42,861 nt of DNA. It comes from Oscillospiraceae bacterium. GTDB taxonomy: Bacteria > Bacillota_I > Bacilli_A > RFN20 > CAG-826. The position numbers and the translations under genes are program-made. Every line of letters begins with the position of its first letter. Positions within the stretch are counted from its first letter, which is position 1. Shown here in pieces: positions 2,721-36,745 of the stretch. The stretch lies in assembly GCA_963644615.1 (NCBI GenBank), contig CAVIPP010000002.1, positions 1 to 42,861 of the forward strand. Reading direction: 5' to 3'. The notes beneath the pieces are model-generated. The model was not told the origin of the DNA. It was given only the letters and a program-made list of their open reading frames with translations, and ran no database searches.

Positions 2721-4893
2721 TATCATTTTTTGTATATAAAACAAAACAGTTATGTTTGGCTTTATTAGCATCACGATAAGTGCTTACGCTACATTTTGCA
2801 GGTTGACCTCCAAATAATTGTAACGCTGCTATTTCTGCTGCCGGACTTAATTGTTTTATTCTTTTTTGTACAAGGGTAGAAGAAGGACGCCCAATGAATT
2901 TAGATATAAAAATAGGAGTACTGTATTTTCCTACAAATTCTGGTTCTTCGCTGTTTCCTGAACCATATAATCACTTACGACCTCATTGTTTAAAACGATC
3001 TCCAAGGACTCGGTCAGTTCACTCAATATTGTATTTTTCCGTATGTGTTATAAATTCGTCAATATCTAATATTCCTCATTGAAAACATATAGGAACAAAC
3101 TGACCATTAACAGTAAAATCATCATTTTTATTTAAATGATTTTTTCCATCGGGACGCATTTTTGCGAAGAAATGAATTAAATTATATTCATAATTTGGTA
3201 AAAATAGATGTTTAACGAATCATTTATAAGTATAAGTCGTATTATATTTAGAAATACCACCAAGGTTTCGATATCCTGATCAACCGCTGGATTTTACTTC
3301 ATAACCAAGAAGAGGTTTTTTATCTTTGTTATTATTTCTAAAATTAATAGTATACCATTTATCAAACTGTAAGGGGGATACTCATTTTGGTAGTGCAGTA
3401 GCATTTGGTTTATATGGTTGCGTTGTTTCTCCTTGACGACAGAAAACGGCATTATCTATTTGAGCATCTAAATATAACTTTATATAAGAATATGATTGAA
3501 TATCTTCTATTTTATCGCCATTATAATAATAATAAATAGTACCTTTTTTATAAGAAGCTTCAACATAGTAAAATCCTTTTTTAGCTTCTTCCTTTTCATA
3601 TAATCCACCATGATCTTGTGCGGCTTTAGAAAAATCGTCTCATGATTCGTAAGAGCCTAGTTCTACATATAACTTGCTAGGAGTATTATAAAACAATTCT
3701 AATCTAAAAACCCCGATATTAACGTATGGTTTATATATTACAACATTAGTTGATGAAATATGACCTGCAGACGACTGAAAGGTAGTTGATACGCCATCAC
3801 TTAAAGTATATGTTCCTCATTCATTATTAGCATATTGAACAGGTTTATTAGTCATATCTATTAATCTGATATTATTTCTTTGTGTGTTTACGGTATATTC
3901 AAATTCTTTGCCATCAGGTTGTCGTCAAGAATTCTTCCTTCTATAACAGTTAACAATATAATCTCGTGAAGGAACTAATACTAATTCTAAGTTTTGTTGC
4001 AGTAAATAATTCATTATTTGAACAGAAGTGTATTCTATATAATAAAAATCTTTCTTGTTGTCTTTATTTACATCATATCCGATATAAGTTCCATCAGACA
4101 AATATAAAATTCCGTTATTCTCTATTAAAGCTGCTAAAAATTTTTCATAGGGACTATATTTTGTACCAGTAGTTCCTCCTTTTATCGTAAAAAAACTTTC
4201 ATCTTTGTGTGTGTTATATTCATCCTGAATACTATCATAAGGTTCTAAATCATTTTTTGTCGCAGATATTTTTCAATATAAGTTCTCATTAATTTCCAAT
4301 TGGTTACAAAATTCATTTGCAGTTGAAAACGTTAGTGCTTCACTGTTATATATATTATCTATGCCGATTTTTAAACATTCTGGTTCTGTATCATCATATA
4401 TAATTTTTGGAGGCACGTCTTGTAAGCGCTCTAATATAGCACTAGATCCTTTAGATTGGAGAATTTTATAATCACGATAGATAACTTTTTGTTGTAGCAA
4501 TCCAGGTGATTGATATTCTAAAATAGTTCCTTTATCATCTAAAGAATATCCAGTAGAAGAATGAAAGAAAAAGAAAGAAAAATTATCTAAAGAATATGTC
4601 TGACTTGCATTTTCTCCTGTTATATATAAAGTTCCATTATCTTCTTTTACACCAGTGATATAAAACATTATATAAAAATTGCGCAAAGAGGGATTTCCTT
4701 CTATGCTTGTAATATTTTGTAAAGAAGAAATATCAGGGCGAGTAGGAATAAAAAAGCCCTTGTTTGTAATAGTTTCTTCTTTATCATATTTAAGAATATA
4801 ACTTGTATTTATTTGAAAATTGTTTGGTTTATTTGTTAATTCATATGGTTCCGAAATTGGTTGAACATAATAAAAATCTTTTTTATTTTGCAA
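2701..4893 (-). CDS. Large hypothetical protein (~730 aa), probably structural; start codon uncertain
   Basis: I translated 4272 down to 2701 in one frame and found no TAA/TAG and at least 11 in-frame TGA (for example 4273, 3925, 3817, 3640, 3382, 3280, 3220). Stop is TAA 2701-2703. The only start candidates after the upstream TAG (4948) are TTG 4893 or ATT/ATA codons; the first ATG is about 70 codons in. Confidence 0.65.
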
Positions 4894-6209: not shown

Positions 6210-6388
6210 TATTTATTTCCTTTTTTCTCTTTAAGTAGTGCTTCTACGATTGCCGCCTTAATAATTAAATCACTATCCAAAATCATTTTACTAATACTGT
6301 TGCGGATTTCATTCGCTTTACTTTCTAATTCTTCGATAGTAAAATTTTCGATAGATTGTCTAAATTCTAATATTTGTTCTTTTTCCAT
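6209..6388 (-). CDS. Small acidic hypothetical protein (59 aa; below the track cutoff)
   Basis: ATG 6388 follows an AAGGAG RBS. Sequence MEKEQILEFRQSIENF...KEKKGNK. Its TAA overlaps the ATG of the resolvase gene (TAATG). Confidence 0.55.
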   Translation of the reverse strand: MEKEQILEFRQSIENFTIEELESKANEIRNSISKMILDSDLIIKAAIVEALLKEKKGNK

Positions 6389-6409
6389 AAAGATACTCCT
6401 TTATATTTA

Positions 6410-6438
6410 TATTATAGAAAAACAAAATGGTAAAAACA
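6410..6438 (-). promoter_or_regulatory. Sigma-70-like promoter for the minus-strand operon 6388 down to 2701
   Basis: On the minus strand: TTGTTT (6433-6438), 17-nt spacer, TATAAT (6410-6415). Confidence 0.45.
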
Positions 6439-6486
6439 AAAATGTTCAGTTGCATTATTCTAAAAAGATATTTTTCACGCTCGAGT

Positions 6487-6515
6487 TTGATTTTTAAAGG
6501 AGTCCTCGATATAAT
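6487..6515 (+). promoter_or_regulatory. Divergent sigma-70-like promoter for the lysis cassette
   Basis: TTGATT (6487-6492), 17-nt spacer, TATAAT (6510-6515); GGAGG RBS and ATG at 6568 downstream. Confidence 0.5.
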
Positions 6516-6567
6516 AATAATGACCATAGAAAGAATATACAGTTCTTGGCGCGGAGGAATTAAGTAG

Positions 6568-7020
6568 ATGGAATGACTCGTAGGAGGAATGTGCGTTATT
6601 GCTAATCTTATAGTGACTACAGTGGTAGGTTTATATATTAAGTCTAAATGAGAAAAACGCGCAAAAGAACAACAAGAGTATAGTGAATTAAAAGACAAAC
6701 AATTGCGTGCAGAAAGACAAGAAGATATTCTTACTAATGTAACGAAAGTTGTAAAACCCATAGAAGAAAAATTGGCAATTGTCGAGCAACAACTTGCTAT
6801 AAATGCGGAAGGAGCCTGCGCGGGTCTCAGATGTCAATTATTAGAATTCTATTATGATTGCGCTAAGAAAGGCTTCCGAACCCAAGATGATAGTGAAAAC
6901 TTTACTAATATGTATAGTGCTTATACTAAACTAGGCGGAAATTCTTTTATTCAAAAAGATATTAGTAAGTGATTCTATGAGTTGCCGCATGAATCAATAA
7001 ATGTAAAAGGAGGCAAATAA
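6568..7020 (+). CDS. Membrane-anchored coiled-coil protein upstream of the holin (possible lysis-cassette component)
   Basis: ATG 6568 lies 8 nt after GGAGGAA. It is in frame with track ORF 6703..6972 through 3 TGA (6574, 6649, 6970). N-terminal TM segment LVGGMCVIANLIVTTVVGLYI. TAA at 7018-7020. Confidence 0.65.
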
Positions 7021-7021
7021 A

Positions 7022-7402
7022 ATGCCACAAGAAATTATGAATATTATCTGATCCGCTTTAGGTGTTATCATCACAGGATTAGTAACTTTTGGAGTTACAA
7101 AATTAACTTCATGGATTAACTCTAAAATAGGAGACCAAAAAGCTGCGAACTATTTATCGACAATTGTTACTTTAGTTGGTAATGCAGTCAAAGACATATA
7201 TCAAACCTATGTTGAATCTTTAAAAACACAAGGTAAGTTTGGACCAGAAGAACAAAAAGTAGCATTGGAAAAATGCTTAAATCAAATTAAATCTCAATTA
7301 GCTCCTGATTTAATAACATATATCACAACTAATTTTGGTGACATGGATAGTTATTTAAGATCTTTAATTGAAAGCACAATTTATAATCTTAAAAATAAAT
7401 AA
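7022..7402 (+). CDS. Holin, LL-H-like family (126 aa)
   Basis: AAAGGAGG RBS, ATG 7022, one in-frame TGA (7049). N-terminal TM ALGVIITGLVTFGV, then ...INSKIGDQKAANYL...AVKDIYQTYVESLKTQGKF..., the pattern I recall for LL-H-type holins. Missed by the track because of the TGA. Confidence 0.65.
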
Positions 7403-8057: not shown

Positions 8058-9177
8058 AAATAAATACCTCTTGTCATTTTTTTCAAGGAATATCATTCTC
8101 TGATAGAGAAGATTCTCCTCATTGTATTGTTAAAAAATCTTTGTCTGTATAGGTTTGTCTAAGTAAATCTCTAAAAACTTCATTTCATTTTTCAGGATGT
8201 CCCCAGAATTCTACGTTGCGGCCGAATTTGAGACCAGGACCGTATTCCGTTGTTATCCATTCTAGCCAACTGTATTGAAATTTATTATGTGTTCAATTAC
8301 TAATTGTTTCGAATAATAGGAAATAAGGCGTATCCATGCGGCTCGATATCATTTTTAATTCAATGGCGATCCTTCTTTTTTTTGCATCAACAATTACCTC
8401 TTTTATGCCGTTTCAGTCCTGTAACGCCGCGTCAGGGAATTTCCAGTGTTCTTTTGCAAATATCTTTATTATTAAAGGATTTATTTTAATTTCCTTTCAA
8501 TGTTCCTTCATTTTTTCTATTGCTTTTATACAGCATGAATATTGAGTTAAAGGAATTGGCACCCATTGAAAATTTACTCCTCGTTGAATATGAAGCTTCA
8601 AGAATAACGTTAAGAGTTCTTCATCAGAAGCTAATTTTGGAAGCCAAATTGGTTCAAAAAACGCCACATTTAGAACGTTTTGCAATTCAATAAGGACCTT
8701 TTTAAGATTTTCTTTTGAAGTTGTTCATAAATTAGTATCCGTTACAATAACCCTTTTAGTGTGGAAACTATTGCGCCAATTTTGTTTAATAGGAAGTAGT
8801 TCTCCTTTGTTATTAAGAAATCGTATTTGCTCTCCTCTTTCTCAATCTGTATTCTTTTCAGGATAAAGCAAGTAATCTGGTCGACAAGCGAGCATTGCAT
8901 CCGGCATGCGCCAATTAATTTTTCTTTTATAAGCCTTACCCCACCATCGAACCGCTCCATTTGTGTAAAATTCAAATGGAGCATTTGGGGTAGTTTCGTT
9001 TTCTTTTATAATATAATAAATATCATAAGGTCTATATATATCATCTTTTTTTAAAACGAAATTAATTTGATCACCGCATTGTTTATGATAACTTGCAATT
9101 TTCATCGCATCAGGGTTAAAACAATTAACTTTTTCTTTTGCATAATAATAGTCTAAGTCTCAAATAGTAATTTTCAT
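8047..9177 (-). CDS. Hypothetical protein (376 aa), TGA-rich
   Basis: ATG 9177 overlaps the polymerase TAA (TAATG). I translated the whole frame: track fragments 8842..9105 and 8497..8685 are joined, with 10 in-frame TGA (9160, 8842, 8725, 8497, 8413, 8293, 8185, 8119, 8083, 8074) and no TAA/TAG until 8047-8049. Confidence 0.75.
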
Positions 9178-10621
9178 TATGCATCCTTCTTTTCTTCGAA
9201 TTCAACGAAGTCACCGTCTTCATCTAAAATAATTTTCAAAATAGATTTACGACCTGTGCTTTTATAAACTTTCGGAACAAAAGTCATTCCTCTTTGAATA
9301 CCAGTTACCAATAAATGAACACCTTTTTCGAAGAAGCTATCTTGTTCAATATCTTTATCGCCGTTTTCGTCCGTATCGCCTACAACGTTCATAAAGGTTG
9401 CGAATAAATCTTTATAAACTTTTAAACTAACGACACCATCTGGACATTGTAAAGTAACTAAACCTTTTGTTCTATCTCTATCAATGACTGTTCCCGCGAT
9501 AGTATAAAGTTTCATACGAGGAATTTCTTTACCTTTAATATAGAAATTACCATCCTGCATACCTTCTACAATAGTATCAATTGGATTAATCGCTATTGGA
9601 AGCTGTTTAATAACTTTTTTCAAAGGATGTCCACTATAATAGAAGTTAATACTATCTAATTCCCATTGTAAATCGTCACCACTGCAATATTTTTGATATT
9701 CATCGCTAAATAGTCGTTCATTTAACGCTTTAAGTAAAGCTTCTTGATTTTTGGAAATATAAGTTTTAATCTTTGACATTTCTTTATTATAAAAGTAATC
9801 CCACTTAGTGCTGTCTAAGACTTTGCGCGGTTCATTATCAATCATCAATTCTTGGCCTTGGATTCCGCTATCCTTTAAGATATTCTTCCAAGATTCGATT
9901 TTATTACTAGGAATGTCTAGTCGATCAGCGCAATACCATAATTTTTTGCTGTCTCGATGTTTTCTTAGTTCCTTTGTCATTTTATATAAATCACTTTGAT
10001 AATCAAAATCTGAAGGAAGTAAGTGCAAATCAATTAACATATTCGCATTTTGTAAGGTTAATTTAGTTTTTAAGTCTGCAGTTGTAGAAATATATTCCTT
10101 TAAAATATCTTTTCTACTTTTGCCTTCTATATGGTCAAAAGCTCCGCATTTTATTAAATTAATTACTTTTGGCTTCGTTATTATTCTTTTTTGAACTTTT
10201 GATAAAAAATCTTTTAAGCTTGTAAAAGGTCTGTTGATCATAATTTCTTCAATAACGGGTTCAGTAATTTGAGAGATACCTTTTAAGCCATATAATATGC
10301 TATTATGTTTTACATCAGGAGTAAAAGATAATCTAGATTCATTTATATCTGGCATATCAATATTGCAAACGTTTCTAAACTTATCCAACGCGGACGCAAT
10401 CTTGGCATAATCCATTTTATTTTGAGCTTTCTTTTCCTCCCCCGCGTCGCCATCTACGATATCATTTTCAATTAAATTGTAAAAGTCGGCGGCATTAATC
10501 GCACTGCTATCGACAGATAAGCATGCACAATTCCAATAAATAATTGGATAATGATATGCTAAATTCATTTCTTGTAAAGCGATTAAAGCGTATCCAGTCG
10601 TATGAATTTCTGAAAAACTAT
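9177..10621 (-). CDS. dnaE: DNA polymerase III alpha (DnaE-type), exon 2
   Basis: The frame extends upstream of the track ATG (10568) as ..SFSEIHTTGYALIALQEMNLAYHYP, matching the DnaE GY-F-SH...YA...AHYP motif. No TGA. TAA at 9177-9179. Confidence 0.85.
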
Positions 10622-11256
10622 CAAGTAATTCTTTTATTTCTAAAAGCTTAGACTATTTTTTAACTAATTTATAATAATTAGCCATAACCTTTTCCAATAA
10701 CGTATCAATAGTTATTGTACGAGATTGCCATTACGCGTCATCTCTAGTCGTTACAGGTTTAATGGTGTATAGGATATGAAATATTAGGATTATAATGTGT
10801 TTCGCCATTGTTAATTTCTTTAACAGAAGATTCTACCATATGCAATTCTGCAGCAATTTCCTTCAAAAGTTTTATATTTTTTCTTAATGGATAAGTAAGG
10901 TTCTCATCGATATATTTCTGACTTTGGTTAATATTGGAAATAAGTATACTAGAAACATTGTATTCTTCTGCAATTTTTTATTGTGTTATTTTTGATGTTA
11001 ATATTTGTTTTTCCAATATAACGATGTCCATTAATTTTATTTATAAAGCTATAAATATATATTTTCATATCTTATACTCCTTTATTTCCCACGAGGTTGT
11101 CTACCGACCTTTACGGTTTAGATTTTCTCGTTAGCTTAGTATTAATCAATTTGGTTATTATTTATATGATTGATATACTAAACCCCTGTGATACCATCAA
11201 ATTTGGAGTACATTAATTTGATGCAGGTAAAGTTATGTAAGGGCAAGTTATAGTTT
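10622..11256 (-). mobile_element. Group I intron (635 nt) interrupting dnaE
   Basis: P1: the exon end GGGGU pairs with intron nt 13-17 GCCCU, with a U.G wobble at the splice site. P10: intron AACUAU is complementary to exon-2 start AUAGUU. The intron ends in G (10622). A candidate P7 is GACUA/UAGUC. Joining 11257 to 10621 restores ...AQLG-Y-SFSEIH..., and exon 1 plus exon 2 total 4041 nt, divisible by 3. Confidence 0.8.
10759..11068 (-). pseudogene. Decayed GIY-YIG homing endonuclease inside the intron
   Basis: AAGGAG RBS and ATG 11068 give MKIYIYSFINKINGHRYIGKT (GIY...YIG), ending at TAG 10949 after 39 codons. An A-run frameshift continues as KIAEEYNVSSILISNI...IAAELHMVESSVKEINNGE (two HTH/NUMOD-like modules) to TAA 10759. 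Most of the catalytic domain is missing. Confidence 0.7.
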
Positions 11257-13852
11257 ACCCCAATTGTGCGCTAATCTGGACATACCAGATATAGCTGAGT
11301 AAGTTATCAGAAGTTCCTATGGCGCGGCCGCGCCGGAAGAATAACTCCTTGACTGCTTCAATTTCTTTAAATTGTTTTTTTGCGATGGTCTTTCTTAATT
11401 TATTAGCCTCTTTCATATCAAAACCGCTAATTTGTGGATCCATAACGATTTGCATTATAACTTCTTGAGATTCCCCGACACCGCATTTTTTCTTCAAATA
11501 CTTTTCTAAGATTTTTTGTTCTTCTGCATTTAATCCATAAGAAATCATTTCTTCATGCCAAGCATTTGGTAGCCGTTTATGTCGTGCATATTTTTCAAGA
11601 GGTAGTTCTCCATCTCCCATTAATCTCATAAGAGAGGATGAAATCGCCAATTCAGTTAGACTGCGAGGTTGGATAGATTTTATCGCTTGAGAACCAACAA
11701 GAGTATCAAATTGGAAAAGACTACTAATTTCACCTTTTCCCACCATATCCCACATTTCAGATGAAGTATAATCTAATACTTGAGGATCAAGATATTTATT
11801 ATAGGTTGCTCGTAATGAACCTTGCCATTCCATTGTTCCATCTTCTAACATATAGTTCATACATTGTCTAATGCGATCCAACGCTGATACTGTTAAAAAG
11901 TCGTATTTAACCATACCGCATCGCTCAAGAGTGTGTAAATCATAAGATGTAACAATTTGTTCATGAGAAGTTTTCATTACACTATTAAAATCATTAAAGT
12001 CGCCATTAACGCATACAACACCAGAAGCATGAACACCAAGTCTTGTTATAAGACCTTCGATGTTTTGTGCTAATTGCCATAAACGAGGATATAACGTCAT
12101 TTGTTCCACGAAAGCTTTAATTGGACTACGATCTTCTCCGTTGCCATAGTAACAATCTTTTAGACTCCAGTCAAATCCTCTTTCGTTCGGAATCATTGAA
12201 GTAATATAACTAATTACATCGTCATCTATTTTTAATCCGCGTGCCGCAGTTTTAAGCGCACTCTTTGTTCCTTCTGTTCCAAAGGTGCAAACATTGATAA
12301 CATCGCCACCAATGCTGTTGAAATAATCGCGAACCGCATTAAAAACGGCAAGTCGTTTGTCAGACTCTGTATCAAAATCAATATCAGGTAAGTCAGGTCT
12401 AGAAGGGTGTAAGAAACGCCATACAAACGGCAAGTCTTGTTCAATAGGATTCATTTGAGTAATACCCAATAGATAGTTAATTAACAATGCTCCTGCAGAA
12501 CCACGGCTTGGTCCGCTAATACTATTTGCTTCATTCCAAACCAAGTCCATAATTTTACTCATTGTAATAAAATAGTCTGCCATTGGCTGTTCGATCTTAT
12601 CTCCTACTTCTTTTAATGTCCAAAATTCTTCTTCTAATCTCTTATAATAGACACTATCAGACCAAGAGGATTTATACTTTTCGACATATCCATGCGCGAC
12701 CAATCGTGCCAAATAGTTATCACTTTGTTTTGAAGAATGTATAAAGTGATAAAAGTTCGGATATGTTTGTTCGTCAACGTCATTAAAAATTTCTAAATCA
12801 TCTGCATATTCTTCCCAATGCTCGTATTTAACAGTGGCTAGTTTAGGTTTTTGTTCCAATTCATAAAATTGGCACATATCTTTTATTTTACGAGTATTAG
12901 AAACCATTTCATTAAATTGTTCTATCGTAATATAGTCTTTCATTAAAGAATAGACTTCTTCTTGCGACATAATATATGTATATTTATAAAAATCATCAAC
13001 TTCTCTATCTCTTGAAGATTTTGAGTTTAAAAAAGCTTTATGTATTTCTCTTTCGTCTTCTTTAAGATAATGAGCATCAGTTGAAAAAACAAATGGATAT
13101 TTTCCCCAATAGCGTTCAATCATAAACTTATTGTATTGATTTTGATCACTATTTTCTTCATTTGGTTGTAATTCTATAAAGAAATTTCCCTTACCAAAAA
13201 GAGATTCCATTGCCATCAAATGATGGTCTAACTTTTGAATATAATAATCTTTACTTTCTGCAGAAACTTCTTCCCAAGGAAATAAATTTTCACCTTGAGT
13301 TGCCATTTTCCAGCACCAAGCAGCATAACCGCCCAAACAAGCAGTAGAACAAATTAAATGTCCACCTTTTACATATTTTATTAAATCACTAGGATATGTA
13401 GGAGTTCTTAAAATATTTCTAAACCATGCGCGTCTCCATGCCGCGGAACTAATTTGTTTTAACTGGTGAAAACCTTCTGCATCTTTTGCAATAAGGATAA
13501 GATGCCAAAAATGGCAAGGAGAAGTGCCATCCATGCGATTTTCCGTTAAACCTTCTTCACTTAAATAAATCTCGTTGCCAAGAATTACTTTAAAATCTAG
13601 TTCTTTTGACGCGGCGTCGTAACCAATAAAATTTTCTTCTGGATGAATAAGCTGCCATTCTTTTTTCAGCTTGGCCCTATATTCATCTAGCTCTTTTAAT
13701 GTTCCAGACAAGCAATCATGGTCAGTAAAAACGAGTCCGCTTAAACCTATATCCCAAGCATAATCAATCATTTGTTCGGAACGATTGGTACTATCTATAA
13801 TTTTCAAATTTGAGAACTCTGTATGATTGTGTATTCCACAATAATCTCTCAT
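11257..13852 (-). CDS. dnaE: DNA polymerase III alpha (DnaE-type), exon 1 (PHP domain plus polymerase core)
   Basis: HNHTEFS...FTDHD PHP motifs in an 865-aa open frame. About 20 Trp, all TGG, and no TGA. The apparent TAA at 11255-11257 begins with the last exon nucleotide. Confidence 0.9.
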
Positions 13853-13885
13853 TTTTATTCTCCTTTCTAAATATATTATATTATA

Positions 13886-14158: not shown

Positions 14159-14169
14159 AAATATGCTCC

Positions 14170-15981: not shown

Positions 15982-15994
15982 TTATATAACTCCA

Positions 15995-17068: not shown

Positions 17069-17069
17069 A

Positions 17070-19813: not shown

Positions 19814-19842
19814 TATTTTTGCTCCTTGAATAAAATATTACA

Positions 19843-19866
19843 AAGAAGAGGGATACCCCTCTTCTT
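19843..19866 (-). terminator. Intrinsic terminator hairpin
   Basis: aagaagaggg (19843-19852), loop atac, ccctcttctt (19857-19866); T-rich tract follows on the minus strand. Confidence 0.6.
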
Positions 19867-19868
19867 AA

Positions 19869-20747: not shown

Positions 20748-20840
20748 AGTTTTTTAATTTAACCTCTTTTTCTTTTCTTTTGTTTTGTTTTTTAATTTGT
20801 TTGTTCTATGCATGACCAGCCACAAGTCCGCATCAGTTTA

Positions 20841-21104
20841 CTAAATAATGAAGGCTCTTCCGTTATCGGTTAAGCGATATGTTTTGTATTCTTTTGGTTT
20901 TGTTTCACCCTTATTGTTAGTGAAATCTCTTACAACTGGATCAGCCATTTCAACTAATCCATGTTTAACTAATGAATTGAGAACAGGGTAAATACCTTTA
21001 ACACCTGTCATATCAATCATGTCTTTTCCGACCCAAACTTCGTCGTGGCTTTGCATAAAACCGAGAACTCTTTTTCCGTTATCTGTTAATGTAATTGTTT
21101 CCAT
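20841..21104 (-). CDS. Small winged-helix DNA-binding protein
   Basis: 87 aa; ...VLNSLVKHGLVE... recognition-helix-like segment; has its own promoter. Confidence 0.55.
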   Translation of the reverse strand: METITLTDNGKRVLGFMQSHDEVWVGKDMIDMTGVKGIYPVLNSLVKHGLVEMADPVVRDFTNNKGETKPKEYKTYRLTDNGRAFII

Positions 21105-21166
21105 TAAAATCTCCTTTAATTGTTGTATATAGTAAAGTTATTAGTGGCTTTTTAACTTTATATATT

Positions 21167-21196
21167 ATTATAGTATATCTTTTTTGATTAGTCCAA
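21167..21196 (-). promoter_or_regulatory. Sigma-70-like promoter
   Basis: Minus strand: TTGGAC (21191-21196), 18-nt spacer, TATAAT (21167-21172). Confidence 0.45.
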
Positions 21197-21204
21197 AATA
21201 ATTT

Positions 21205-23415
21205 TTAAATAATTGTCGAAACGGCACGAGAAGTTAATGCCGCACCAGTAGCAGTTCGACCTTTTACAATAATCTTATTTCTTGCAACAGTAAACATTTT
21301 ACCTTGTTTTGGAATAAGATAAATACATTCTCGTTCATTTTCAAACTTTCTCATGCAAATAGTATCTTTACAAATCATTTGCCCTTTATTTCCACGATTA
21401 TCTACTGAGAAATCTTGGACCGATGTATATTTTCCTTTTGCGTCTTTGGTTACAAACAACAAAAGATCACTATTACTTACAACTGCCGCGGCCGCACAGG
21501 TCGAGAAGCCTGATTTAACACCAACAGTTAGTTTACTTGCTACGCTTAAATCCGCAATAGAAAGTTTTAAAACATTTTGGTCACCGTCAAATAACATAAT
21601 AAAATCATTATCTGAACAGAAGTCCGCGTAAAGAAGTTCATTACCTTCTTTAAGCTTTAATACTTTTTCTTTTGTTTTTGTAAACTTATAATCTGCAACA
21701 TTAGTTACTTTAATATTGCCCTTTTTTGTTACTGCAATGAATTTATTTTTATCTTTATTTTTAACACATGCCCCGATATAGCCCGCAGAAGATTGAATAG
21801 GAGAAATTTCTCCTTCTTTGTTATAACCTAATATATCTTCCATAGCATAAGCAAAGACAATATCTACGAGAGTGCCCATAGTATTAGTATCCAAATTATT
21901 ATCAATTCCATTTGTAGTAATCTTATACTCCTGTTTTATAATAGGTTTGTCTGCATGGATAACTGGTCGCGCATAGTGTATTTCAGTTAAACGCTTATCT
22001 TCTCCAAGGACTTTCTTAATATTCTTTAAATCCGCCAAAATCATCGAATATCTGATTTTTTCATCATCAATAATTTCTTTGATATGTGCTAAAGTTTTTT
22101 CTAATTCTTCTTTATCTGAATCAAGCTCTTTTAAATCTAATCGACTTAAACGAGATAACTTCATATTTAAAACCGCTTCAGCTTGTTCATCATTAAGCGC
22201 GAATTCCTGCATTATGGATGATTTTGCCGCTGCTCTGTCTTGTGAGCCTCGGATCAGACTAATTAACTTGTCAATATCGCTTAGGCACTTTTGCAAGCCA
22301 ATAGTAACTGTTAATTTATGATTAGTTTCTGCATAGTCGGTACGAGCTACTTTTATTATACAATTACTTCGATATTCAACCCAGTATTCAATCATTTGTT
22401 TTAATGAAAGAACGCGAGGTTCGCCATTTATAATTAAGTTTTGATTAATTTTTATTGAAGAAGACAGTTTAGTTTTATTAAATAATATCTCTAAACATTT
22501 TGCAACATTAGCATCTTTCCCTAAGGTAATAGTAATGTCAAAATTGCGGTCTCCAACCTTTAAAACACTAATATCTTCAAAGACTTCATATCCATCTTCT
22601 AAAACTAATTTCTTTAAAGGCTTTTTAATGCCATCATCAATATCTACACCATAAGGTAAGTCATGGAAAGTAATTAAAGTTTTTGAACCTTTCTTAGATA
22701 TATCATAATGAGAATAAACTTTAACGCTTCCTTGACCTCTTGTATATATATCAAGAAGTTCTTCGCCATTCATGATAATGCCAGCAGTAGGAAAGTCAGG
22801 ACCTTTAATGAAGTTCATTAAGTCCGCAATAGAACATTCTTTATTATTCATATAAAACTCTATTGCATTCATTACTTCTGTAAAGTTATGAGATACTAAA
22901 TCGGACCCCATTCCTACTGCAATACCACTATTATTCCCGCATAGTAAATAAGGAAATTTTGATGGTAAAGTGCAAGGCTCAGTGCAAGAATTATCAAAAT
23001 TAGGTTTTGTATCCACACAATTCATGTCAATATCTTCAAGCATAAACATTCCTATTTTGCTTAGTCGACATTCTGTGTAACGTGACGCGGCAGCTGAGTC
23101 GCCTAAGATATTACCACAGTTACCTTGCATTTCAACAAGGGGATAACGCAACTTCCACCATTGACTCAATCTTACTATTGCTTCGTAAATAGAAGAATCT
23201 CCATGTGGATGAAGTTCACCCATAACATTACCAACGACTTTTGCACTTTTAACTGTTGGTTTATTGTTATAAAATTTACTTTTATACATAGACCATAAAA
23301 TACGTCTATGAATTGGTTTTAAGTTATCTTCTACACTTGGAATGGCGCGACTTTTAATGACACTATTAGCATATATCAAGAAGTCTTGTTTACTTCTTTC
23401 ATCTATGTTACTCAT
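21205..23415 (-). CDS. Type IIA DNA topoisomerase, subunit A (GyrA/ParC-like)
   Basis: ...HPHGDSSIYEA... and AAASRYTECRLS (catalytic Tyr context). 736 aa, no TGA. Confidence 0.9.
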   Translation of the reverse strand: MSNIDERSKQDFLIYANSVIKSRAIPSVEDNLKPIHRRILWSMYKSKFYNNKPTVKSAKVVGNVMGELHPHGDSSIYEAIVRLSQWWKLRYPLVEMQGNCGNILGDSAAASRYTECRLSKIGMFMLEDIDMNCVDTKPNFDNSCTEPCTLPSKFPYLLCGNNSGIAVGMGSDLVSHNFTEVMNAIEFYMNNKECSIADLMNFIKGPDFPTAGIIMNGEELLDIYTRGQGSVKVYSHYDISKKGSKTLITFHDLPYGVDIDDGIKKPLKKLVLEDGYEVFEDISVLKVGDRNFDITITLGKDANVAKCLEILFNKTKLSSSIKINQNLIINGEPRVLSLKQMIEYWVEYRSNCIIKVARTDYAETNHKLTVTIGLQKCLSDIDKLISLIRGSQDRAAAKSSIMQEFALNDEQAEAVLNMKLSRLSRLDLKELDSDKEELEKTLAHIKEIIDDEKIRYSMILADLKNIKKVLGEDKRLTEIHYARPVIHADKPIIKQEYKITTNGIDNNLDTNTMGTLVDIVFAYAMEDILGYNKEGEISPIQSSAGYIGACVKNKDKNKFIAVTKKGNIKVTNVADYKFTKTKEKVLKLKEGNELLYADFCSDNDFIMLFDGDQNVLKLSIADLSVASKLTVGVKSGFSTCAAAAVVSNSDLLLFVTKDAKGKYTSVQDFSVDNRGNKGQMICKDTICMRKFENERECIYLIPKQGKMFTVARNKIIVKGRTATGAALTSRAVSTII

Positions 23416-23430
23416 TAAAACGCTCCTTTA

Positions 23431-23694
23431 TTAATTATGTGTTGTTTCGTTAGTTGTGCTATTTTGTGCGGCTTCTGCTTTAGCGGCTTCTTCTTTTTCA
23501 GTTTGAATACGATAGAATTCTGTTAAAGTCACAGTTTTATCTTCGTACGGAACAGTGAGAATGTTTTCAACAGTGCATAAACGTTGATTCAAAATATTTA
23601 AGAATCTTATTAATACAGTAAGAGGTAAATCTTCTGTAAGAGTAACGTCTGCCCATCCTTGTAATTTTTGTTCTTGTTCTTGTTCTTTTTCCAT
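23431..23694 (-). CDS. Small acidic hypothetical protein
   Basis: 87-aa ORF with RBS and its own promoter. Confidence 0.55.
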   Translation of the reverse strand: MEKEQEQEQKLQGWADVTLTEDLPLTVLIRFLNILNQRLCTVENILTVPYEDKTVTLTEFYRIQTEKEEAAKAEAAQNSTTNETTHN

Positions 23695-23726
23695 ATAACT
23701 TATATTCTCCTTTTATTATTTATAAT

Positions 23727-23755
23727 ATTATATTATATTTTTTTCTATTTGTAAA
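23727..23755 (-). promoter_or_regulatory. Sigma-70-like promoter
   Basis: Minus strand: TTTACA (23750-23755), 17-nt spacer, TATAAT (23727-23732). Confidence 0.5.
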
Positions 23756-23769
23756 ATTATTTTTAAACT

Positions 23770-24192
23770 CTATATTTTATCTGTAATAATGTATTTTTTG
23801 CCTCATGCGGTTGCTTGACCTTCAAATCATATATCATCATATAACGTTGGAGGGAATTTTCCTTTACGAGTGTATTTTAATTCTCTATATCAATAACGAA
23901 TGGCACTAGGAATGCAGATAACGAACGGCATCAGCGGACCTCAAATAATATTTTGAAGACCGTGTCCGCACTCATGTCCTAGTAAATTGTCGTATTGGCA
24001 ATTTTCTCCGCATAAGAAGAAACATCCTAGTTCTAATCCACCTCAATTTTTACCTATTGTTTTATATAAACGACCATGAAAAACATGATAATGACCAAAA
24101 GGAATAATCATAACGATTAGACCAATAATGGACATAATCGCGCCTCAGGTAAAAGAAGCAATATAAAATAAAATTCTTTTAAAAGTTAACAT
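23770..24192 (-). CDS. Small polytopic membrane protein with an HExxH motif (putative zincin-like, DUF3267-type)
   Basis: GGAGG RBS overlaps the topo-B stop; ATG 24192. 140 aa, MLTFKRILFYIASFTWGAIMSIIGLIV...LLGHECGHGLQNIIWGPL.... All 6 Trp are TGA. Stop is TAG 23770. Invisible in the standard-code track. Confidence 0.7.
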
Positions 24193-24203
24193 TAATAATC
24201 CTC

Positions 24204-26150
24204 CTATTCATCGTCTGCATCAGTATAATCATCATAAGAATCATCTAAAATACTATACTTAGACAATTTATTTTTTAATATAAATTCTTTTCTTAATGAT
24301 GGTTGTTTACCCATCAATTGATTATAAAGGTCTAATGTTTTTTCCATATTATCGGTAGTTAATGGAATGAGTCTGCGATTTTCAGGATCCATGGTGGTTG
24401 AATATAACTCATCTGGATTCATTTCACCTAAACCTTTAAATCTATTTGATACAGCGTTGCGGTGATTGCGCATATACTTCTTATATTCTTTTTCATCTTC
24501 TGGATACCAATATAATGTCTCTTTACCATTAATAGTTTTGTAAAGTGGAGATGTTGCAATAAACACTTTACCAGCAGTAATTAATTGAGGCAAATGGTGT
24601 AAAAATAATGTTGTAAGTAAGAGATTAATATGCCCACCATCTGGATCTGAGTCAGCCATAAAAATAATTCTGTTATAACGTAAATTATTAATATTGAAAT
24701 GGTCGCCAATTCCGCATCCTAAACAAGTTAAAATGTCTTTAATTGTATCAGACTTTATTGCATCTGCTAATTCTTTACATGTGGTATTTAATACTTTTCC
24801 GCGCAAAGGCATAATTGCTTGACTCAAGCTCTTTGTAATCTTCGCATTGCCCGCAGCAGAATCACCTTCACAGAAAAATATTTCCGCGTCAGTAAAATCA
24901 TTTGCATCTGCTAATTTTTCAGGTAAATCCTTAAGTGAGTTCATAGATTTACCACCACGAGCAATTTTTTCTTGCGCTTCTCTTTTACGTTGCGCGGCCT
25001 CCTCTGCTTTCTGTTCGATTACAATTTTATCTAAAATCTGTTTTAATTCTTTCGGTTGAAAAGTTAATTGACCAACGGCTTTACTACAGTAGCCACGAGC
25101 AGAAGGGCTATTTAAAGTTTTCTTCGTTTGCTCAGCAAACATTGGTCGTTCAGTCATCTTAATTGAAAGAACTAAAATTAAGCCTTTACGCACCATGTCT
25201 CCGCTAAAGTTTTTATCTTTTTCTTTTAATATTTCTTGTTCTCTTGCAAGTTTATTTATTAGTGAAGTATATGCGGTTTTCCACCCAGTTACATGCGTTC
25301 CATCATTTGGAGTATAACCACCATTTACGAACGAATAAATTGTTTCATATGTTTTATCACAATAAACAAAAGCCATTTCTACATTACAACTTTCTCCTGA
25401 ATCTGCGGTTACATTAGTACAGAAGTAGATAGGGGATGTAATTATTTTTTCTCCTTCACTTTTTATTTTAAGCATATCTTTAATGCCATTGGTATAGTAA
25501 TATTTCCAAGTGCCTAAAATTTTGTCTTCATTCTTTTCAATTAATTCGAAGGTAATGCCATTATTTAAAAGAGCATGAAGTTGTAGTTCTTCTTGTATCT
25601 TTTGTATGTCCCATTTAATATCACCAAAAACAGCGGTGTCTGGAATAAAAGAAACAGAAGTGCCTTGACGAGTACCGCTATAAGGTTCAATCTCAGGATC
25701 ACTAACGTCTCCTTCATAAACTTCAAAGAAACAATGTTGTTTGTCTCTCCATACCTCGATAATAAAGTCTGAAGATAAAGCATTAGTTACAGTAGAGCCA
25801 ACACCATGTAAACCAAGCGAAGATTTATAATTGCTCTGTCCCTCGAATTTGCCTCCTGAGTGAAGATTAGTACACATTTCGACAATCGCATAGTTACCAT
25901 CGTCTTTCATACCAAAAGGTATTCCTCTTCCGTTGTCGGATACTGTTGCACTATTGTTTGCTCTATTTATTTCTACTTTGATTATTTTACCAAAACCCGC
26001 CGCGGCTTCATCCATCGCATTGGCTATGATTTCAGTAAGTAGATGATGCATACCGTTCACATCATTAGATCCAATATACATACCAAGAGACTGTTTAATA
26101 GCCTCTCTGTAACCGAGAGTTACAATACTACTTTCATCGTATTTTACCAT
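24204..26150 (-). CDS. Type IIA DNA topoisomerase, subunit B (GyrB/ParE-like ATPase plus TOPRIM)
   Basis: GHKL ATPase motifs (EIIANAMDE, DNGRGIP, GLHGVG) and TOPRIM (EGDSA, DSDPDG). No TGA; 5 Trp, all TGG. Stop is TAG. Confidence 0.9.
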   Translation of the reverse strand: MVKYDESSIVTLGYREAIKQSLGMYIGSNDVNGMHHLLTEIIANAMDEAAAGFGKIIKVEINRANNSATVSDNGRGIPFGMKDDGNYAIVEMCTNLHSGGKFEGQSNYKSSLGLHGVGSTVTNALSSDFIIEVWRDKQHCFFEVYEGDVSDPEIEPYSGTRQGTSVSFIPDTAVFGDIKWDIQKIQEELQLHALLNNGITFELIEKNEDKILGTWKYYYTNGIKDMLKIKSEGEKIITSPIYFCTNVTADSGESCNVEMAFVYCDKTYETIYSFVNGGYTPNDGTHVTGWKTAYTSLINKLAREQEILKEKDKNFSGDMVRKGLILVLSIKMTERPMFAEQTKKTLNSPSARGYCSKAVGQLTFQPKELKQILDKIVIEQKAEEAAQRKREAQEKIARGGKSMNSLKDLPEKLADANDFTDAEIFFCEGDSAAGNAKITKSLSQAIMPLRGKVLNTTCKELADAIKSDTIKDILTCLGCGIGDHFNINNLRYNRIIFMADSDPDGGHINLLLTTLFLHHLPQLITAGKVFIATSPLYKTINGKETLYWYPEDEKEYKKYMRNHRNAVSNRFKGLGEMNPDELYSTTMDPENRRLIPLTTDNMEKTLDLYNQLMGKQPSLRKEFILKNKLSKYSILDDSYDDYTDADDE

Positions 26151-33609: not shown

Positions 33610-34077
33610 TTAAATTTCTAATTTTTTGCGGGCTTTCACGGCCAAGAGGTCGACATAATTATTTCAGGTATTATTACTATGCGATTGAACTTTTACGACT
33701 TCAAGGTTTACATTCTTTTTAAGTTTAATAAATAAAGCCACAATACGCTTCCATAAATCTTGATTTTTTACTTCTTGTCTATCTGCGGTCTTTCATCCAT
33801 TCTTCATTCAAGTTAAATACCAACCTTGATTAAAGGCATTAGAGATATAAGCGCTATCAGTATATATAATAACCTTTGTTTGTGTTGTTTCTATTGTATC
33901 TGCATTTTCAAGAGCAGAAAGAATTGCAGTTAACTCCATTCTATTATTCGTAGAATAAGGTTCATAACCGCTCTGTTCGTCGATAATCATATTGTCTTCA
34001 AGACAAATCGCGGCTCAACCACCCATTTCAGTTTTAGATGAGTAAGCACCATCAACATAAAATTCTAGTTTACGCAT
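33610..34077 (-). CDS. rnhA: Ribonuclease HI
   Basis: MRKLEFYVDGAY...NNRMEL...IYTDS...NNYVDLLA covers the DEDD catalytic set. 4 in-frame TGA. GWYLT-TGA-MKNG-TGA-KTADRQEVKNQDLWKRI aligns with E. coli [28 protein letters not shown], so two TGA fall on conserved Trp. Confidence 0.85.
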
Positions 34078-34576
34078 TGTGAACCTCCAATTCATCCGCG
34101 GAATGAATAAATTCTTTTTCATCTACTATTGTTTTTTCATCGCAAAGCATAAAAATTAAATCTTTATATTTTATTGTTAAATTAAAAATATCATTAATGG
34201 TTTGATAATTAGACGCTTTTTTAATCAATGAAAAACTTGTTTTTAAACATTTTAACTTTTCAGGGGCATCTAACCTATAATCTGATGAACGACGTTCTTG
34301 CTTCGACATCATGCGGAAAAATTCTCCGCATGCCACATTAACAAAGCCAAGAAAGAAATTGCAATCGTCTTCGTTCGCGACAGAAGAATCGCTATCAAGT
34401 TCTAATTCGTAACTAACCGCAAGAGCATTGTGTTTAATCATGCGCGAAAAAATGTCGTCGCAAAGCTTTTTTAATTCAAAAACCGCCGCTTCAGTATTAA
34501 TCCCGGTGCAGTATGATTCCGTGGCGTAATTAAATTCTTTGACTATTTTAAAGTTCTTAAAATCTGCAAATAACAT
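34070..34576 (-). CDS. Hypothetical protein (168 aa)
   Basis: AGGAG RBS. ATG 34576 overlaps the TAA of the upstream exonuclease gene. I consider the track's upstream extension to 34636 spurious. Confidence 0.6.
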   Translation of the reverse strand: MLFADFKNFKIVKEFNYATESYCTGINTEAAVFELKKLCDDIFSRMIKHNALAVSYELELDSDSSVANEDDCNFFLGFVNVACGEFFRMMSKQERRSSDYRLDAPEKLKCLKTSFSLIKKASNYQTINDIFNLTIKYKDLIFMLCDEKTIVDEKEFIHSADELEVHNA

Positions 34577-35669: not shown

Positions 35670-36275
35670 TTATTTAATAAATTCAATAGACCATATATAA
35701 ACGCGTTTATTAGAAGTAAAAGTGAAGTTATCTGTTCCTTCAAAGGTATAAACTACTTCTTCTCCTTGTCCTTCTGCGTTATATGGCGATAATTTGGAAT
35801 CTCCATTAATGGCTAAGCTGTTGCTATTGGTAGGATAAGTATCTGATAAAGCATAGAAATCGTGAGTAACTACTTTACATTGAGTAAATTTTTCTACAGT
35901 TGTAAAATTTACAACTCCTTCTGCTTTTGCAGTTCCCATCTTAACTAATCCATATTCTTTTTGATGACAACCACCTGTCCCAGCATTAGAATAAACATTA
36001 GTATATTCTCCAAGTGTTAACCAGTCTGCTGAGAATGCATTCTCAACGGTTGAATTTTCATCAAGAGTTGTGAAATCTAATTTGTATTCAGCAGGTGTAA
36101 CAGATGTAGTGGTTGAATCACCACTTGATGTGTTAGTAGAATCGGCAGAACTAGTAGAACCCGTGTCAACAGGAACCGTAGGGCTAGTAACGTCTCCACT
36201 ACTTGTGTTGCTACAAGCGGCCAAACCGCAAGTAAGCGTTGCGCCAATAATGGCAAGTGACCAAAATTTTTTCAT
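35670..36275 (-). CDS. Secreted lipoprotein
   Basis: MKKFWSLAIIGATLTCGLAAC contains the lipobox LAAC; a Ser/Thr-rich linker follows. No TGA. Confidence 0.8.
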   Translation of the reverse strand: MKKFWSLAIIGATLTCGLAACSNTSSGDVTSPTVPVDTGSTSSADSTNTSSGDSTTTSVTPAEYKLDFTTLDENSTVENAFSADWLTLGEYTNVYSNAGTGGCHQKEYGLVKMGTAKAEGVVNFTTVEKFTQCKVVTHDFYALSDTYPTNSNSLAINGDSKLSPYNAEGQGEEVVYTFEGTDNFTFTSNKRVYIWSIEFIK

Positions 36276-36301: not shown

Positions 36302-36396
36302 TGGCAGGGGTGACAGGAATCGAACCCGTTCGAGCCCGGGTTGGAACCGGGTCGGCGGTTTTGAAGACCGCTGTGCAGCCACTACACTACACCCCT
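36302..36396 (-). tRNA. Opal-decoding tRNA (anticodon UCA), tRNA-Trp-like, with an atypical 25-nt extra arm
   Basis: Minus-strand sequence: AGGGGTG TA GTGT AGTGGCT GCAC A GCGGT CT-TCA-AA ACCGC [CGA CCCGG TTCCAAC CCGGG C TCG A] ACGGG TTCGATT CCTGT CACCCCT G CCA. The acceptor stem is 7 bp with A1:U72, the discriminator is G73, and CCA is encoded. The T-loop is TTCGATT and the anticodon loop is CU-UCA-AA. Acceptor and anticodon arms closely resemble E. coli tRNA-Trp as I recall it (AGGGGCG..., CCGGUCUCCAAAACCGG). Confidence 0.9.
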
Positions 36397-36745
36397 ATCT
36401 TGTTTTATGATAGTGCTTGATTTTGCGTCTCGCGATGGTTGTTTTACGAGCGTATGGTATAAGACTAATATTATAACCATGCGGTTGCAAGGTATTTAAT
36501 TTTAGAATCCAGTAACGTTCCTGGTCATTAAGTTTAGCGATGGGACAAAATTCAAGCACATCAAAACGAAATCCATGGTTGTCTTTATTTCAGTCGGCTT
36601 GCATTAGTTTATTTTCATGACAACCTTTTCTTAATGCTGTAAAATGTTCTTTTTTACGATGATAAACATTTTTACTTTGACCGACATAAATCTTGCCGGT
36701 TTTTAGATTTGTTATTTTATAGATACCAGCAAGAGATAAAGTCAT
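36395..36745 (-). CDS. Free-standing GIY-YIG endonuclease (116 aa)
   Basis: GIYKITNLKTGKIYVGQS...R..H...LRKGCHENKLMQAD-TGA-NKDNHGFRFDVLE...ERYWI...GYN. It has one in-frame TGA, at the aromatic position of the L-x-x-x-(F/W)-N-K motif. The TAG stop (36395-36397) overlaps the first nucleotide of the tRNA. Confidence 0.85.

Follow-up and report, generated by a model that had tools for sequence, protein, structure and literature searches.

Introduction

Synthetases that depend on the anticodon are the main obstacle to codon reassignment, since a tRNA that carries the anticodon for a new codon loses part of its identity. The known tRNAs closest to the one described here are bacterial tRNA-Trp and its UCA derivatives: the E. 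coli trpT opal suppressors, the tRNA-Trp(UCA) of Mycoplasma, Spiroplasma and mitochondria, and class I phage tRNA(UCA). All are class I molecules with one anticodon arm and a variable loop of 4–5 nucleotides (nt), and the tryptophanyl-tRNA synthetase (TrpRS) of Mycoplasma and of mitochondria presumably accepts U34. Here we describe a tRNA(UCA) encoded in a 42,861-nt stretch of phage DNA (contig CAVIPP010000002.1, positions 1–42,861; this whole stretch is called the window below). Like these derivatives and bacterial tRNA-Trp itself, it has A1:U72, G2–G5:C68–C71, G73 and a Trp/Gln-like D arm; with the UCA derivatives it further shares the loop CUUCAAA and the predicted insertion of Trp at UGA. 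Over its full length it can be aligned with class I tRNA-Trp(CCA) except for one block, an additional arm of 5–8 bp with a 7-nt loop that displays CCA, the wild-type Trp anticodon. We consider it rather more probable than any alternative that this arm is an anticodon-arm mimic that supplies Trp identity to TrpRS in cis, while the UCA anticodon decodes TGA.

Several described RNAs share single features with this tRNA. Class II tRNAs (Ser, Leu, Tyr) also carry a long arm before the T arm, which is tolerated by the ribosome and EF-Tu, and in tRNA-Ser and bacterial tRNA-Tyr this arm is itself a synthetase recognition element. Class II arms are recognised by their shape and end in small loops, mostly 3–5 nt long and with no conserved sequence, whereas the loop of the window tRNA is 7 nt long, invariant and a copy of an anticodon loop. 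Selenocysteine (Sec) tRNAs, allo-tRNAs and selC* tRNA-Cys have the UCA anticodon, a long arm, G73 and the SeC label in common with it (Mukai et al. 2017, PMC5389517). However, their acceptor/T stems are of the 8/5, 8/4 or 9/3 kind, their D stems are long, and charging with Ser, Cys or Ala does not depend on any anticodon-like loop (PMC5389517), whereas the window tRNA is a 7/5 molecule with a class I D arm. Engineered variable arms that carry hairpin aptamers (Mukai 2020, PMC7590224) are artificial, are built on an allo-tRNA chassis, bind unrelated proteins and are not natural identity elements.

Mimics of anticodon arms are found in the E. coli thrS operator, in the mRNAs of yeast aminoacyl-tRNA synthetases and in viral tRNA-like structures, where a copy of the cognate anticodon loop is read by the anticodon-binding domain of the synthetase under normal identity rules (PMC9976931). 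These mimics regulate translation or permit charging of a 3' end, whereas the mimic described here lies inside an elongator tRNA, beside a different anticodon that does the decoding. The code-change modules of Jade phages contain a TrpRS of their own for charging a UGA-reading tRNA in a standard-code host, and the charging of suppressors that come without a phage synthetase was named as an open question in the same work (Borges et al., bioRxiv 10.1101/2021.08.26.457843). A survey by Seki et al. covered 213 phage suppressor tRNAs. The earlier note on the window, which was made from the DNA letters without database searches, knew of no described tRNA of this design, and a full-text literature search, with most subscription journals outside its coverage, likewise found no description of a suppressor tRNA that carries a copy of its cognate anticodon loop. 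We regard it as improbable that the design has already been described somewhere. Compared with the systems above, the window tRNA is a suppressor tRNA with what would be an unprecedented identity module.

Structure of the window tRNA

A single tRNA is found by ARAGORN in the 42,861-bp window, a 95-nt gene with the anticodon tca (Table 1). Its label, SeC, rests on the anticodon alone. The Rfam search matches positions 36305–36396 to the general tRNA model RF00005 (51.4 bits with a gathering score of 29, E = 2.8e-08); the alignment runs end to end, with one long insertion in the variable region of the window tRNA. From 5' to 3', the first half of the molecule reads AGGGGUG UA GUGU AGUGGCU GCAC A GCGGU CUUCAAA ACCGC, and the remainder reads CGACCCGG UUCCAAC CCGGGCUCG A ACGGG UUCGAUU CCUGU CACCCCU G CCA. 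The 7/5 cloverleaf, A1:U72, G73 and the anticodon loop CU-UCA-AA claimed in the earlier note are all borne out by the sequence, ARAGORN and RF00005, and the strand, which it did not give, is the minus strand. Its account of a 25-nt variable region that folds into an 8-bp stem with a bulged C and the 7-nt loop UU-CCA-AC also stands. The minimum-free-energy (MFE) fold of the 95 nt is a five-arm structure that contains this hairpin (−41.7 kcal/mol, z = −2.8, with 2 of 200 shuffled sequences folding equally well), and the extra hairpin folded by itself has an energy of −11.6 kcal/mol. The reason for regarding the extra arm as more than a product of chance is the comparison with relatives described below, which share its loop and have a covarying stem, and not this single sequence.

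The extra region can be drawn in two ways. In the first, it is the 8-bp stem with one bulged C (CGACCCGG / CCGGG-C-UCG) followed by one 3' nucleotide. In the second, it consists of a linker CGA, a 5-bp stem with a 7-nt loop (CCCGG-UUCCAAC-CCGGG) and a variable loop CUCGA. With the UCA arm (arm 1) taken as the anticodon arm, the variable region is thus 25 nt long and not the 4–5 nt of a class I tRNA. With the CCA arm (arm 2) in this role, the variable loop is a regular 5 nt (CUCGA), yet the molecule then carries a 20-nt insertion after position 26.

The acceptor stem has the pairs A1:U72, G2:C71, G3:C70, G4:C69 and G5:C68, which constitute the acceptor identity set of bacterial tRNA-Trp (PMC9976931), so that this set is complete in the window tRNA. 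The discriminator G73 is the major Trp determinant in bacteria and is read by Glu155 of E. coli TrpRS (PMC12135181). Among 842 phage tRNAs, the D arms closest to that of the window tRNA belong to tRNA-Trp(CCA) and tRNA-Gln. The Trp requirement for C34-C35-A36 is the part that is missing from the decoding arm, where the anticodon is U34-C35-A36; the CCA triplet is located in the 7-nt U-CCA-A loop of the second arm. The molecule therefore combines a stop-codon anticodon with a copy of the cognate loop, the two features that define the two-arm suppressor family described below.

Meaning of TGA in the window phage

The window comes from a tailed phage with a low GC content (32%). When TGA is treated as a sense codon, the coverage of the window by long open reading frames (ORFs) rises from 0.70 to 0.93. 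In-frame TGAs number 93 and are spread over 18 genes, and TGG is scarce in the TGA-rich ones. The genes for the polymerase, RecJ, primase, helicase and both topoisomerase II subunits (within the 9177–26150 region) are free of TGA, and the tail-fibre genes, a UvrD-like helicase, RNase H, a glycosyltransferase-like protein and many unknown genes contain 1–13 TGA codons each. In RNase H, three of the four TGAs align with Trp residues of solved RNase HI structures; at two of these sites every one of the four structures shown has Trp, and at the third site two of them do. These alignments point to Trp as the predicted meaning of TGA in the window phage. The window tRNA is the only candidate TGA decoder within the window, and with its UCA anticodon and in-frame sense TGAs in the genes around it, it is a Trp-type opal suppressor. 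One ORF, 376 residues long, is unusually rich in such codons (10 TGA and 10 TGG, ~5% Trp); its single weak family match is to a radical-SAM-domain PHROG (E = 2e-4).

The usage of TGA also bears on whether the molecule is a tRNA of the Ser or Sec type, in which the long arm and G73 would recruit SerRS and UGA would mean Ser, or Sec after conversion. The SeC label, the long arm, G73, G2:C71, G3:C70 and the existence of a family subgroup with Ser-like D arms (see below) are consistent with such a tRNA. We nevertheless consider it very improbable, since TGA appears to mean Trp in this phage: 93 in-frame TGAs in 18 genes are unlike Sec usage, where rare UGA sites are served by SECIS, SelB and SelA, the RNase H codons fall on Trp positions, and no Sec machinery was found among the families scanned in the window. 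The structure is not that of a tRNA-Sec either. Bacterial tRNA-Sec has a 13-bp acceptor/T domain (8/5) and a D stem of 6 bp closing a 4-nt loop. In the window tRNA, the acceptor stem is 7 bp and the T stem 5 bp long, U8-A9 precede a D stem that is not Sec-like, and Rfam reports the general tRNA model. A 6-bp D pairing can be drawn for it, but this pairing is not conserved in the relatives. The E. coli tRNA-Ser set comprises G1:C72 and C11:G24, from which the window tRNA differs with U72 and U11:A24. Its 4-bp D stem, 7-nt D loop and conserved 7-nt extra-arm loop are likewise not those of a class II tRNA-Ser, in which a 3-bp D stem goes with an enlarged D loop and the long arm ends in a small loop of no fixed sequence.

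Conservation of the second arm

Relatives of the window tRNA were collected from IMG/VR with a pattern in which the UCA anticodon loop, its flanking base pairs and the T loop were fixed and any long intervening region was allowed, so that the scan was blind to the loop of the extra arm. A looser first pattern, CTTCAAA...GGTTCGAWTCC, had given mostly chance matches and was replaced. Both scans together with the window yielded at least 50 distinct tca tRNAs, and the counts below are among the matches listed. Matches from genomes and metagenomes bring the two-arm family to at least 43 distinct sequences, and the design is seen in dozens of phages that are not related to one another. The family is defined by a stop-codon anticodon on arm 1 and a second hairpin before the T arm, with a 7-nt loop that reproduces the anticodon loop for the reassigned amino acid. 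Deposited phage genomes (INPHARED) contain no match to the 30–42.8 kb region of the window and none to its tRNA.

All 36 non-Sec long-arm tRNA(UCA), the window tRNA included, have CCA in the extra arm, and in 35 of them the triplet falls in the predicted hairpin loop. None of the 14 phage tRNA-Sec recovered by the same scan has CCA in the loop of its extra arm. The loop has the form N-U-CCA-A-(A/C) in 39 of the 43 family sequences, most commonly CUCCAAA or GUCCAAA; in an alignment anchored on CCA the three columns are invariant, and the flanking U and A are kept in at least 90% of 39 hairpins. CUCCAAA is also the anticodon loop of ordinary tRNA-Trp(CCA) genes in the same phage loci, and the window loop UUCCAAC is that of two phage tRNA-Trp(CCA) genes (L008 and L181). 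As a control, 101 other long-arm tRNAs (Ser, Leu, Tyr and others) were taken from the same loci. Their extra-arm loops are mostly 3–5 nt long, and the only one with CCA (L033) turned out to be a two-arm UCA suppressor mis-parsed by ARAGORN, which leaves none in 100. The earlier note had made its idea depend on homologues that keep both the arm and its CCA loop: every non-Sec long-arm tRNA(UCA) found does have a CCA arm, and the loop is conserved as a look-alike of an anticodon loop.

With the same sequence anchors, two-arm tRNAs in IMG/VR are about twice as numerous as all single-arm tRNA(UCA) combined, few of which are tRNA-Trp-like. Signs of TGA recoding are visible in many of the two-arm loci and absent from the tRNA-Sec loci. 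The viral contigs with an apparently genuine tRNA-Sec (8/5, GGUG D loop: L031, L035, L081, L099, L101, L112, L122, and further L127, L129, L141, L142, L146, L154 and L161) gain no ORF coverage when TGA is read as sense. Two-arm phages often also encode an ordinary tRNA-Trp(CCA), which lies in one tRNA cluster with the two-arm tRNA(UCA) (L121, L123, L126, L131, L140, L144, L145, L158). Several of these loci show little TGA recoding in the stretch fetched.

The stem of the second arm covaries, as the earlier note had asked to be checked. RNAalifold applied to a full-length alignment finds all four standard arms and misses the extra stem, the strands of which are out of register across subgroups; for this reason covariation was evaluated on 39 hairpins anchored on the loop and compared with 500 shuffles and with slid registers. 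Pairing is possible in 81.6% of the stem cells compared with 45% in shuffles, and double changes occur at all six pairs. The covariation score is 0.89 against 0.21 in shuffled hairpins; none of the 500 shuffles reaches 0.89, and slid registers give at most 0.20.

The closest relatives of the window tRNA show the same on a smaller scale. One metagenome contig (L186) has an identical tRNA. Two others, L189 and L191 (the latter being the same as L086 of IMG/VR), are syntenic relatives of the window phage and are TGA-recoded as well (coverage of L086 and L189 rises from about 0.42 to 0.92). Their neighbouring proteins are ~50–66% identical to those of the window and the flanking DNA can no longer be aligned, whereas the tRNAs are 97–98% identical to the window tRNA. 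Each differs from it at two of 95 nt, and in both cases the two differences make up one compensatory change from C-G to U-A in arm 2, at a different site in each lineage, with the loop unchanged. These two compensatory pairs are the only variation of the tRNA in its own lineage. Compensatory changes and an intact loop amid diverged flanks argue for strong selection on both the pairing of arm 2 and its loop sequence.

The conserved loop is also difficult to reconcile with an intervening sequence, the removal of which would leave a plain tRNA-Trp(UCA). The extra segment does look like a discrete insertion of ~20–25 nt relative to class I tRNA-Trp. In an excised spacer, however, an invariant U-CCA-A loop that fits the amino acid would serve no need, and Rfam finds nothing else at the locus. 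The tRNA introns of bacteria and phages are group I introns, more than 200 nt long and located in the anticodon loop, and we know of no protein-dependent tRNA splicing in bacteria or their phages. Of all readings of the extra segment, we find removal as an intron the hardest to credit.

Glutamine loops in amber suppressors

A parallel scan of IMG/VR for long-arm amber suppressors gave 40 distinct tRNA(CUA). In 25 of them, a small hairpin before the T arm carries a 7-nt loop of the form Y-U-(C/U)UG-A-R, which contains the Gln anticodons CUG or UUG. The loops seen are CUCUGAA, UUCUGAG, CUCUGAC and CUUUGAA (loci within L261–L322, for example the 2004–2045 region of L308, L264, L262 and L277). All 25 have class I D arms, and their acceptor ends are mostly Gln-like (U1 or A1, usually with G73). 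The class II-like amber suppressors from the same scan have ordinary small loops and lack the Gln loop; they are likely charged by SerRS and LeuRS, which ignore the anticodon. The stems of the Gln-type mimics are only 2–5 bp long, mostly too short for a real anticodon arm.

The two kinds of loop do not mix. UCCA(A/U) is present in 42 of 43 opal and in none of the 40 amber suppressors, and U(C/U)UGA is present in none of the 43 opal and in 25 of the 40 amber suppressors. By these counts, the triplet of the second loop tracks the predicted reassigned amino acid, CCA going with UGA-to-Trp and CUG/UUG with UAG-to-Gln, which argues that the second loop is tied to the amino acid and not to RNA architecture.

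Scaffolds and origin of the second arm

In a family alignment of 30 sequences, the first acceptor pair is A1:U72 in 24 and G1.U72 in five, and G73 is present in 29. The D arms of the window tRNA and of the largest group are nearest to those of tRNA-Trp(CCA) and tRNA-Gln. Those of L050, L147, L156, L011, L225 and L027 are nearest to phage tRNA-Ser, a class II scaffold. The difference between these tRNA bodies suggests that the CCA loop was reached more than once, on different scaffolds. A small subgroup (L069, L095, L137, L162) has a G1:C72 acceptor stem (GCCCCAG) and U73 instead of G73, with the loop AUCCAAU (AACCAGU in L069); the contigs are strongly TGA-recoded (coverage rises from 0.23–0.33 to 0.88–0.99).

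Drawing arm 2 as a 5-bp stem that closes a 7-nt loop leaves 3–5 nt before the T stem in all 43 sequences, which is the length of a class I variable loop, and 2–6 nt between the two arms. In the main group, arm 2, its 3' linker (xGGU), the T arm and the 3' strand of the acceptor stem align at 81–89% with the 3' part of tRNA-Trp(CCA) genes in deposited phage genomes (BLAST). Only the 3' halves of ordinary tRNA-Trp genes match the main-group tRNA in INPHARED, where no record covers 80% or more of it. Given this collinearity and the linker lengths, a tRNA-Trp with two anticodon-type arms in tandem is the best description of the two-arm molecule. In the main group, the CCA arm appears to be the original anticodon arm and the UCA arm an acquired one, and 'variable arm' may be the wrong name for the former. 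A recent tandem duplication of the arms was considered as well; the two stems are alike at 4.0 of 10 positions within a tRNA and at 4.2 of 10 between tRNAs, so that the stems give no sign of a recent one.

The same geometry would permit a two-headed, switching tRNA, in which either arm can stack under the D stem. In the CCA state such a molecule would be an ordinary tRNA-Trp that could read UGG, and in the UCA state it would read UGA; as Trp would be inserted in both states, the switching would be harmless. This is a specific version of the identity idea, and it would fit the distance between acceptor and anticodon for TrpRS and for the ribosome without a new binding mode. The uniform linkers and the match of the 3' part to annotated tRNA-Trp(CCA) genes speak for it. 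On the other hand, the Ser-like scaffolds and the window tRNA can equally be drawn with class II variable arms flanked by 0–1 unpaired nt, and the short Gln-type stems mean that switching is not a general mechanism. To our knowledge, no natural tRNA carries an additional arm at the junction of positions 26 and 27, and on balance we consider the switching variant unlikely.

Proposed tryptophan identity in cis

The reading that we prefer, of a cis-acting mimic, assigns decoding and charging to different arms. The second arm, placed between the decoding arm and the T arm, would present the wild-type Trp anticodon loop in cis; TrpRS would take the C34-C35-A36 part of its identity set from this loop, together with G73 and A1:U72, so that charging with Trp would be efficient and specific, and the UCA arm alone would decode UGA on the ribosome. 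The second loop could be read directly from the side of the variable arm, or the two arms could exchange places under the D stem. Both TrpRS as the reader of the second loop and its access route are what we infer. TrpRS is one of two class I enzymes that approach the tRNA from the side of the variable region, and it binds across the dimer, so that a contact with the extra arm is at least conceivable. The regular 3' linker favours an exchange of arms; the short stems of the Gln mimics and the existence of Ser-like scaffolds speak for static reading.

The distribution of phage TrpRS genes is consistent with this proposal. A tblastn search with a TrpRS sequence against every fetched locus found such a gene only in L174 and L175, two loci with a single-arm Trp-like tRNA(UCA), and none in the window or in any fetched two-arm locus. 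The TrpRS of L174 and L175 is 46.5% identical to Bacillus-type TrpRS and is encoded ~2.5 kb from the tRNA(UCA), the backbone of which resembles those of the two-arm tRNAs L114 and L226. The arrangement is similar to the Jade 'code-change operon', whereas the solution in the window would be an RNA element in the tRNA and not a protein. This suggests two alternative answers to one problem, a synthetase of one's own or an anticodon loop of one's own, although it concerns one lineage and is anecdotal. In the earlier note, the CCA was proposed to be a decoy that keeps the UCA-reading tRNA charged with Trp. This idea has gained support from the conservation of the loop, the covariation of the stem, the glutamine parallel in amber suppressors and the distribution of TrpRS genes, all of them sequence comparisons.

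Several observations weigh against the proposal. A variable-arm loop is not located at the anticodon site of the L-shaped tRNA, and a new binding mode or a rearrangement is required to read it. GlnRS is a monomer that approaches the tRNA from the side opposite to TrpRS, and a cis mechanism is harder to picture for it. Single-arm Trp-like UCA suppressors exist without a nearby TrpRS gene (L178 and the freshwater set L185–L193), which shows that the arm is not universally needed; the benefit of a second arm probably depends on the host. According to the authors of its co-crystal structure, E. coli TrpRS need not discriminate C34 from U34 (PMC12135181), and all 13 phage tRNA(UCA) tested in E. coli extract inserted Trp, the presence of the arm not being stated (bioRxiv 10.1101/2025.10.30.685624). 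Finally, a genome scan that required TCCAA returned mostly ordinary bacterial tRNA-Sec with UCCAA in the variable loop, which makes the UCCAA motif alone not diagnostic of the two-arm family. These tRNA-Sec were probably selected by the search pattern and are not family members. They (L197–L259, for example L197, L209 and L240) are true 8/5 molecules with a UCCAA(A) extra-arm loop from Caulobacteraceae, Aquificales, Eisenbacteria, Nitrospirae-type metagenome-assembled genomes and others, and GUCCAAAAGG recurs across the tRNA-Sec of Caulobacteraceae.

If TrpRS is not the reader, the second loop could be recognised by something else: an anticodon-loop modification enzyme such as MiaA, an anticodon nuclease of the host that it would serve to distract, a T-box leader or some factor of the phage. 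The arm could also be a structural leftover of the origin of the suppressor. Both loops have the A36-A37-A38 context, the arm is dispensable in some Trp-like UCA suppressors, and there is no known way for TrpRS or GlnRS to read a loop of the variable arm. However, the triplet tracks the amino acid, as a synthetase reads it and MiaA does not, and a nuclease decoy inside the tRNA would destroy the tRNA. A leftover would not arise on a tRNA-Ser-like scaffold, nor would it retain an invariant loop and compensated stem pairs next to flanks that have diverged beyond alignment, and the similarity of the stems quoted above contains no trace of a persisting duplication. Another reader or a leftover is in our judgement distinctly unlikely.

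Beyond the window tRNA, the cis-acting mimic may be an instance of a wider principle, in which decoding and synthetase identity are split between two loops. Such a split could have evolved repeatedly, on Trp- and Ser-like scaffolds for UGA-to-Trp and on Gln-like scaffolds for UAG-to-Gln. Arm exchange may be the way in which it works, the molecule being an ordinary tRNA-Trp to TrpRS and a reader of UGA on the ribosome. We put this broader statement forward tentatively, with doubts of about the same weight as the arguments for it or slightly greater. If true, phages could recode TGA and TAG in standard-code hosts without a synthetase of their own, by means of an RNA module through which identity is regained in cis. 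The wrong SeC label of many such tRNAs, and perhaps the failure to detect others at all, would be explained as well. It would also provide a portable design rule for efficient suppressor tRNAs in genetic-code expansion and tRNA therapeutics, namely that a cognate anticodon arm is grafted beside the suppressor arm. The structural question it raises is how a synthetase reads an anticodon loop away from the tip of the L.

Genomic context of the tRNA

Table 1. Positions of the tRNA parts and genes referred to in the text (window coordinates unless a locus is named)
Feature	Position	Strand	Basis or remark
Whole tRNA gene with encoded CCA end and two anticodon-type arms	36302..36396	-	ARAGORN, RF00005, MFE fold
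Acceptor stem, 5' strand AGGGGUG	36390..36396	-	pairs with CACCCCU at 36306-36312
Discriminator G73	36305	-	sequence
D arm GUGU / AGUGGCU / GCAC, class I type	36373..36387	-	sequence
Arm 1, decoding anticodon arm GCGGU-CUUCAAA-ACCGC; anticodon UCA at 36362-36364	36355..36371	-	ARAGORN, RF00005
Extra region, 25 nt	36330..36354	-	fold and sequence
Arm-2 loop UUCCAAC; Trp anticodon CCA at 36342-36344, with U33-like and A37-like neighbours	36340..36346	-	
T arm ACGGG-UUCGAUU-CCUGU	36313..36329	-	RF00005 and sequence
RNase H gene, example client	33610..34122	-	4 in-frame TGA codons
GIY-YIG homing-endonuclease ORF	36395..36745	-	one in-frame TGA
Gene of 201-residue protein	35670..36275	-	
ORF of 376 residues	8047..9177	-	
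DnaE-type polymerase, ORF 1	9177..10568	-	
DnaE-type polymerase, ORF 2	11255..13852	-	
L174, tRNA	7108..7182		
L174, TrpRS gene	9732..10715		
L175, tRNA	3606..3680		
L175, TrpRS gene	6230..7213		

The tRNA gene lies between two genes on the same strand. Immediately upstream of it is an ORF for a GIY-YIG homing endonuclease, the stop codon of which runs into the tRNA by two bases; L086 and L189 have a homologue in the same position. The product of the gene directly downstream has a signal of the lipoprotein type (MKKFWSLAIIGATLTCGLAAC...) and a linker rich in Ser/Thr, and no PHROG match was found for it. On the 3' side of the tRNA lie a small hairpin (GUCCUU/AAGGAC) and the ribosome-binding site of this gene.

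The replication module of the window phage comprises a split DnaE-type polymerase, RecJ, primase, DnaB, topoisomerase II and ribonucleotide reductase (RNR), and tail-fibre genes are present as well. The polymerase is ~40% identical to that of SPbeta-like Bacillus phages, and this resemblance suggests a host from the Bacillota. The two ORFs of the polymerase are ~690 bp apart, with no ORF of 80 or more residues between them in the standard code, and the two parts match adjoining stretches of single PHROG profiles.

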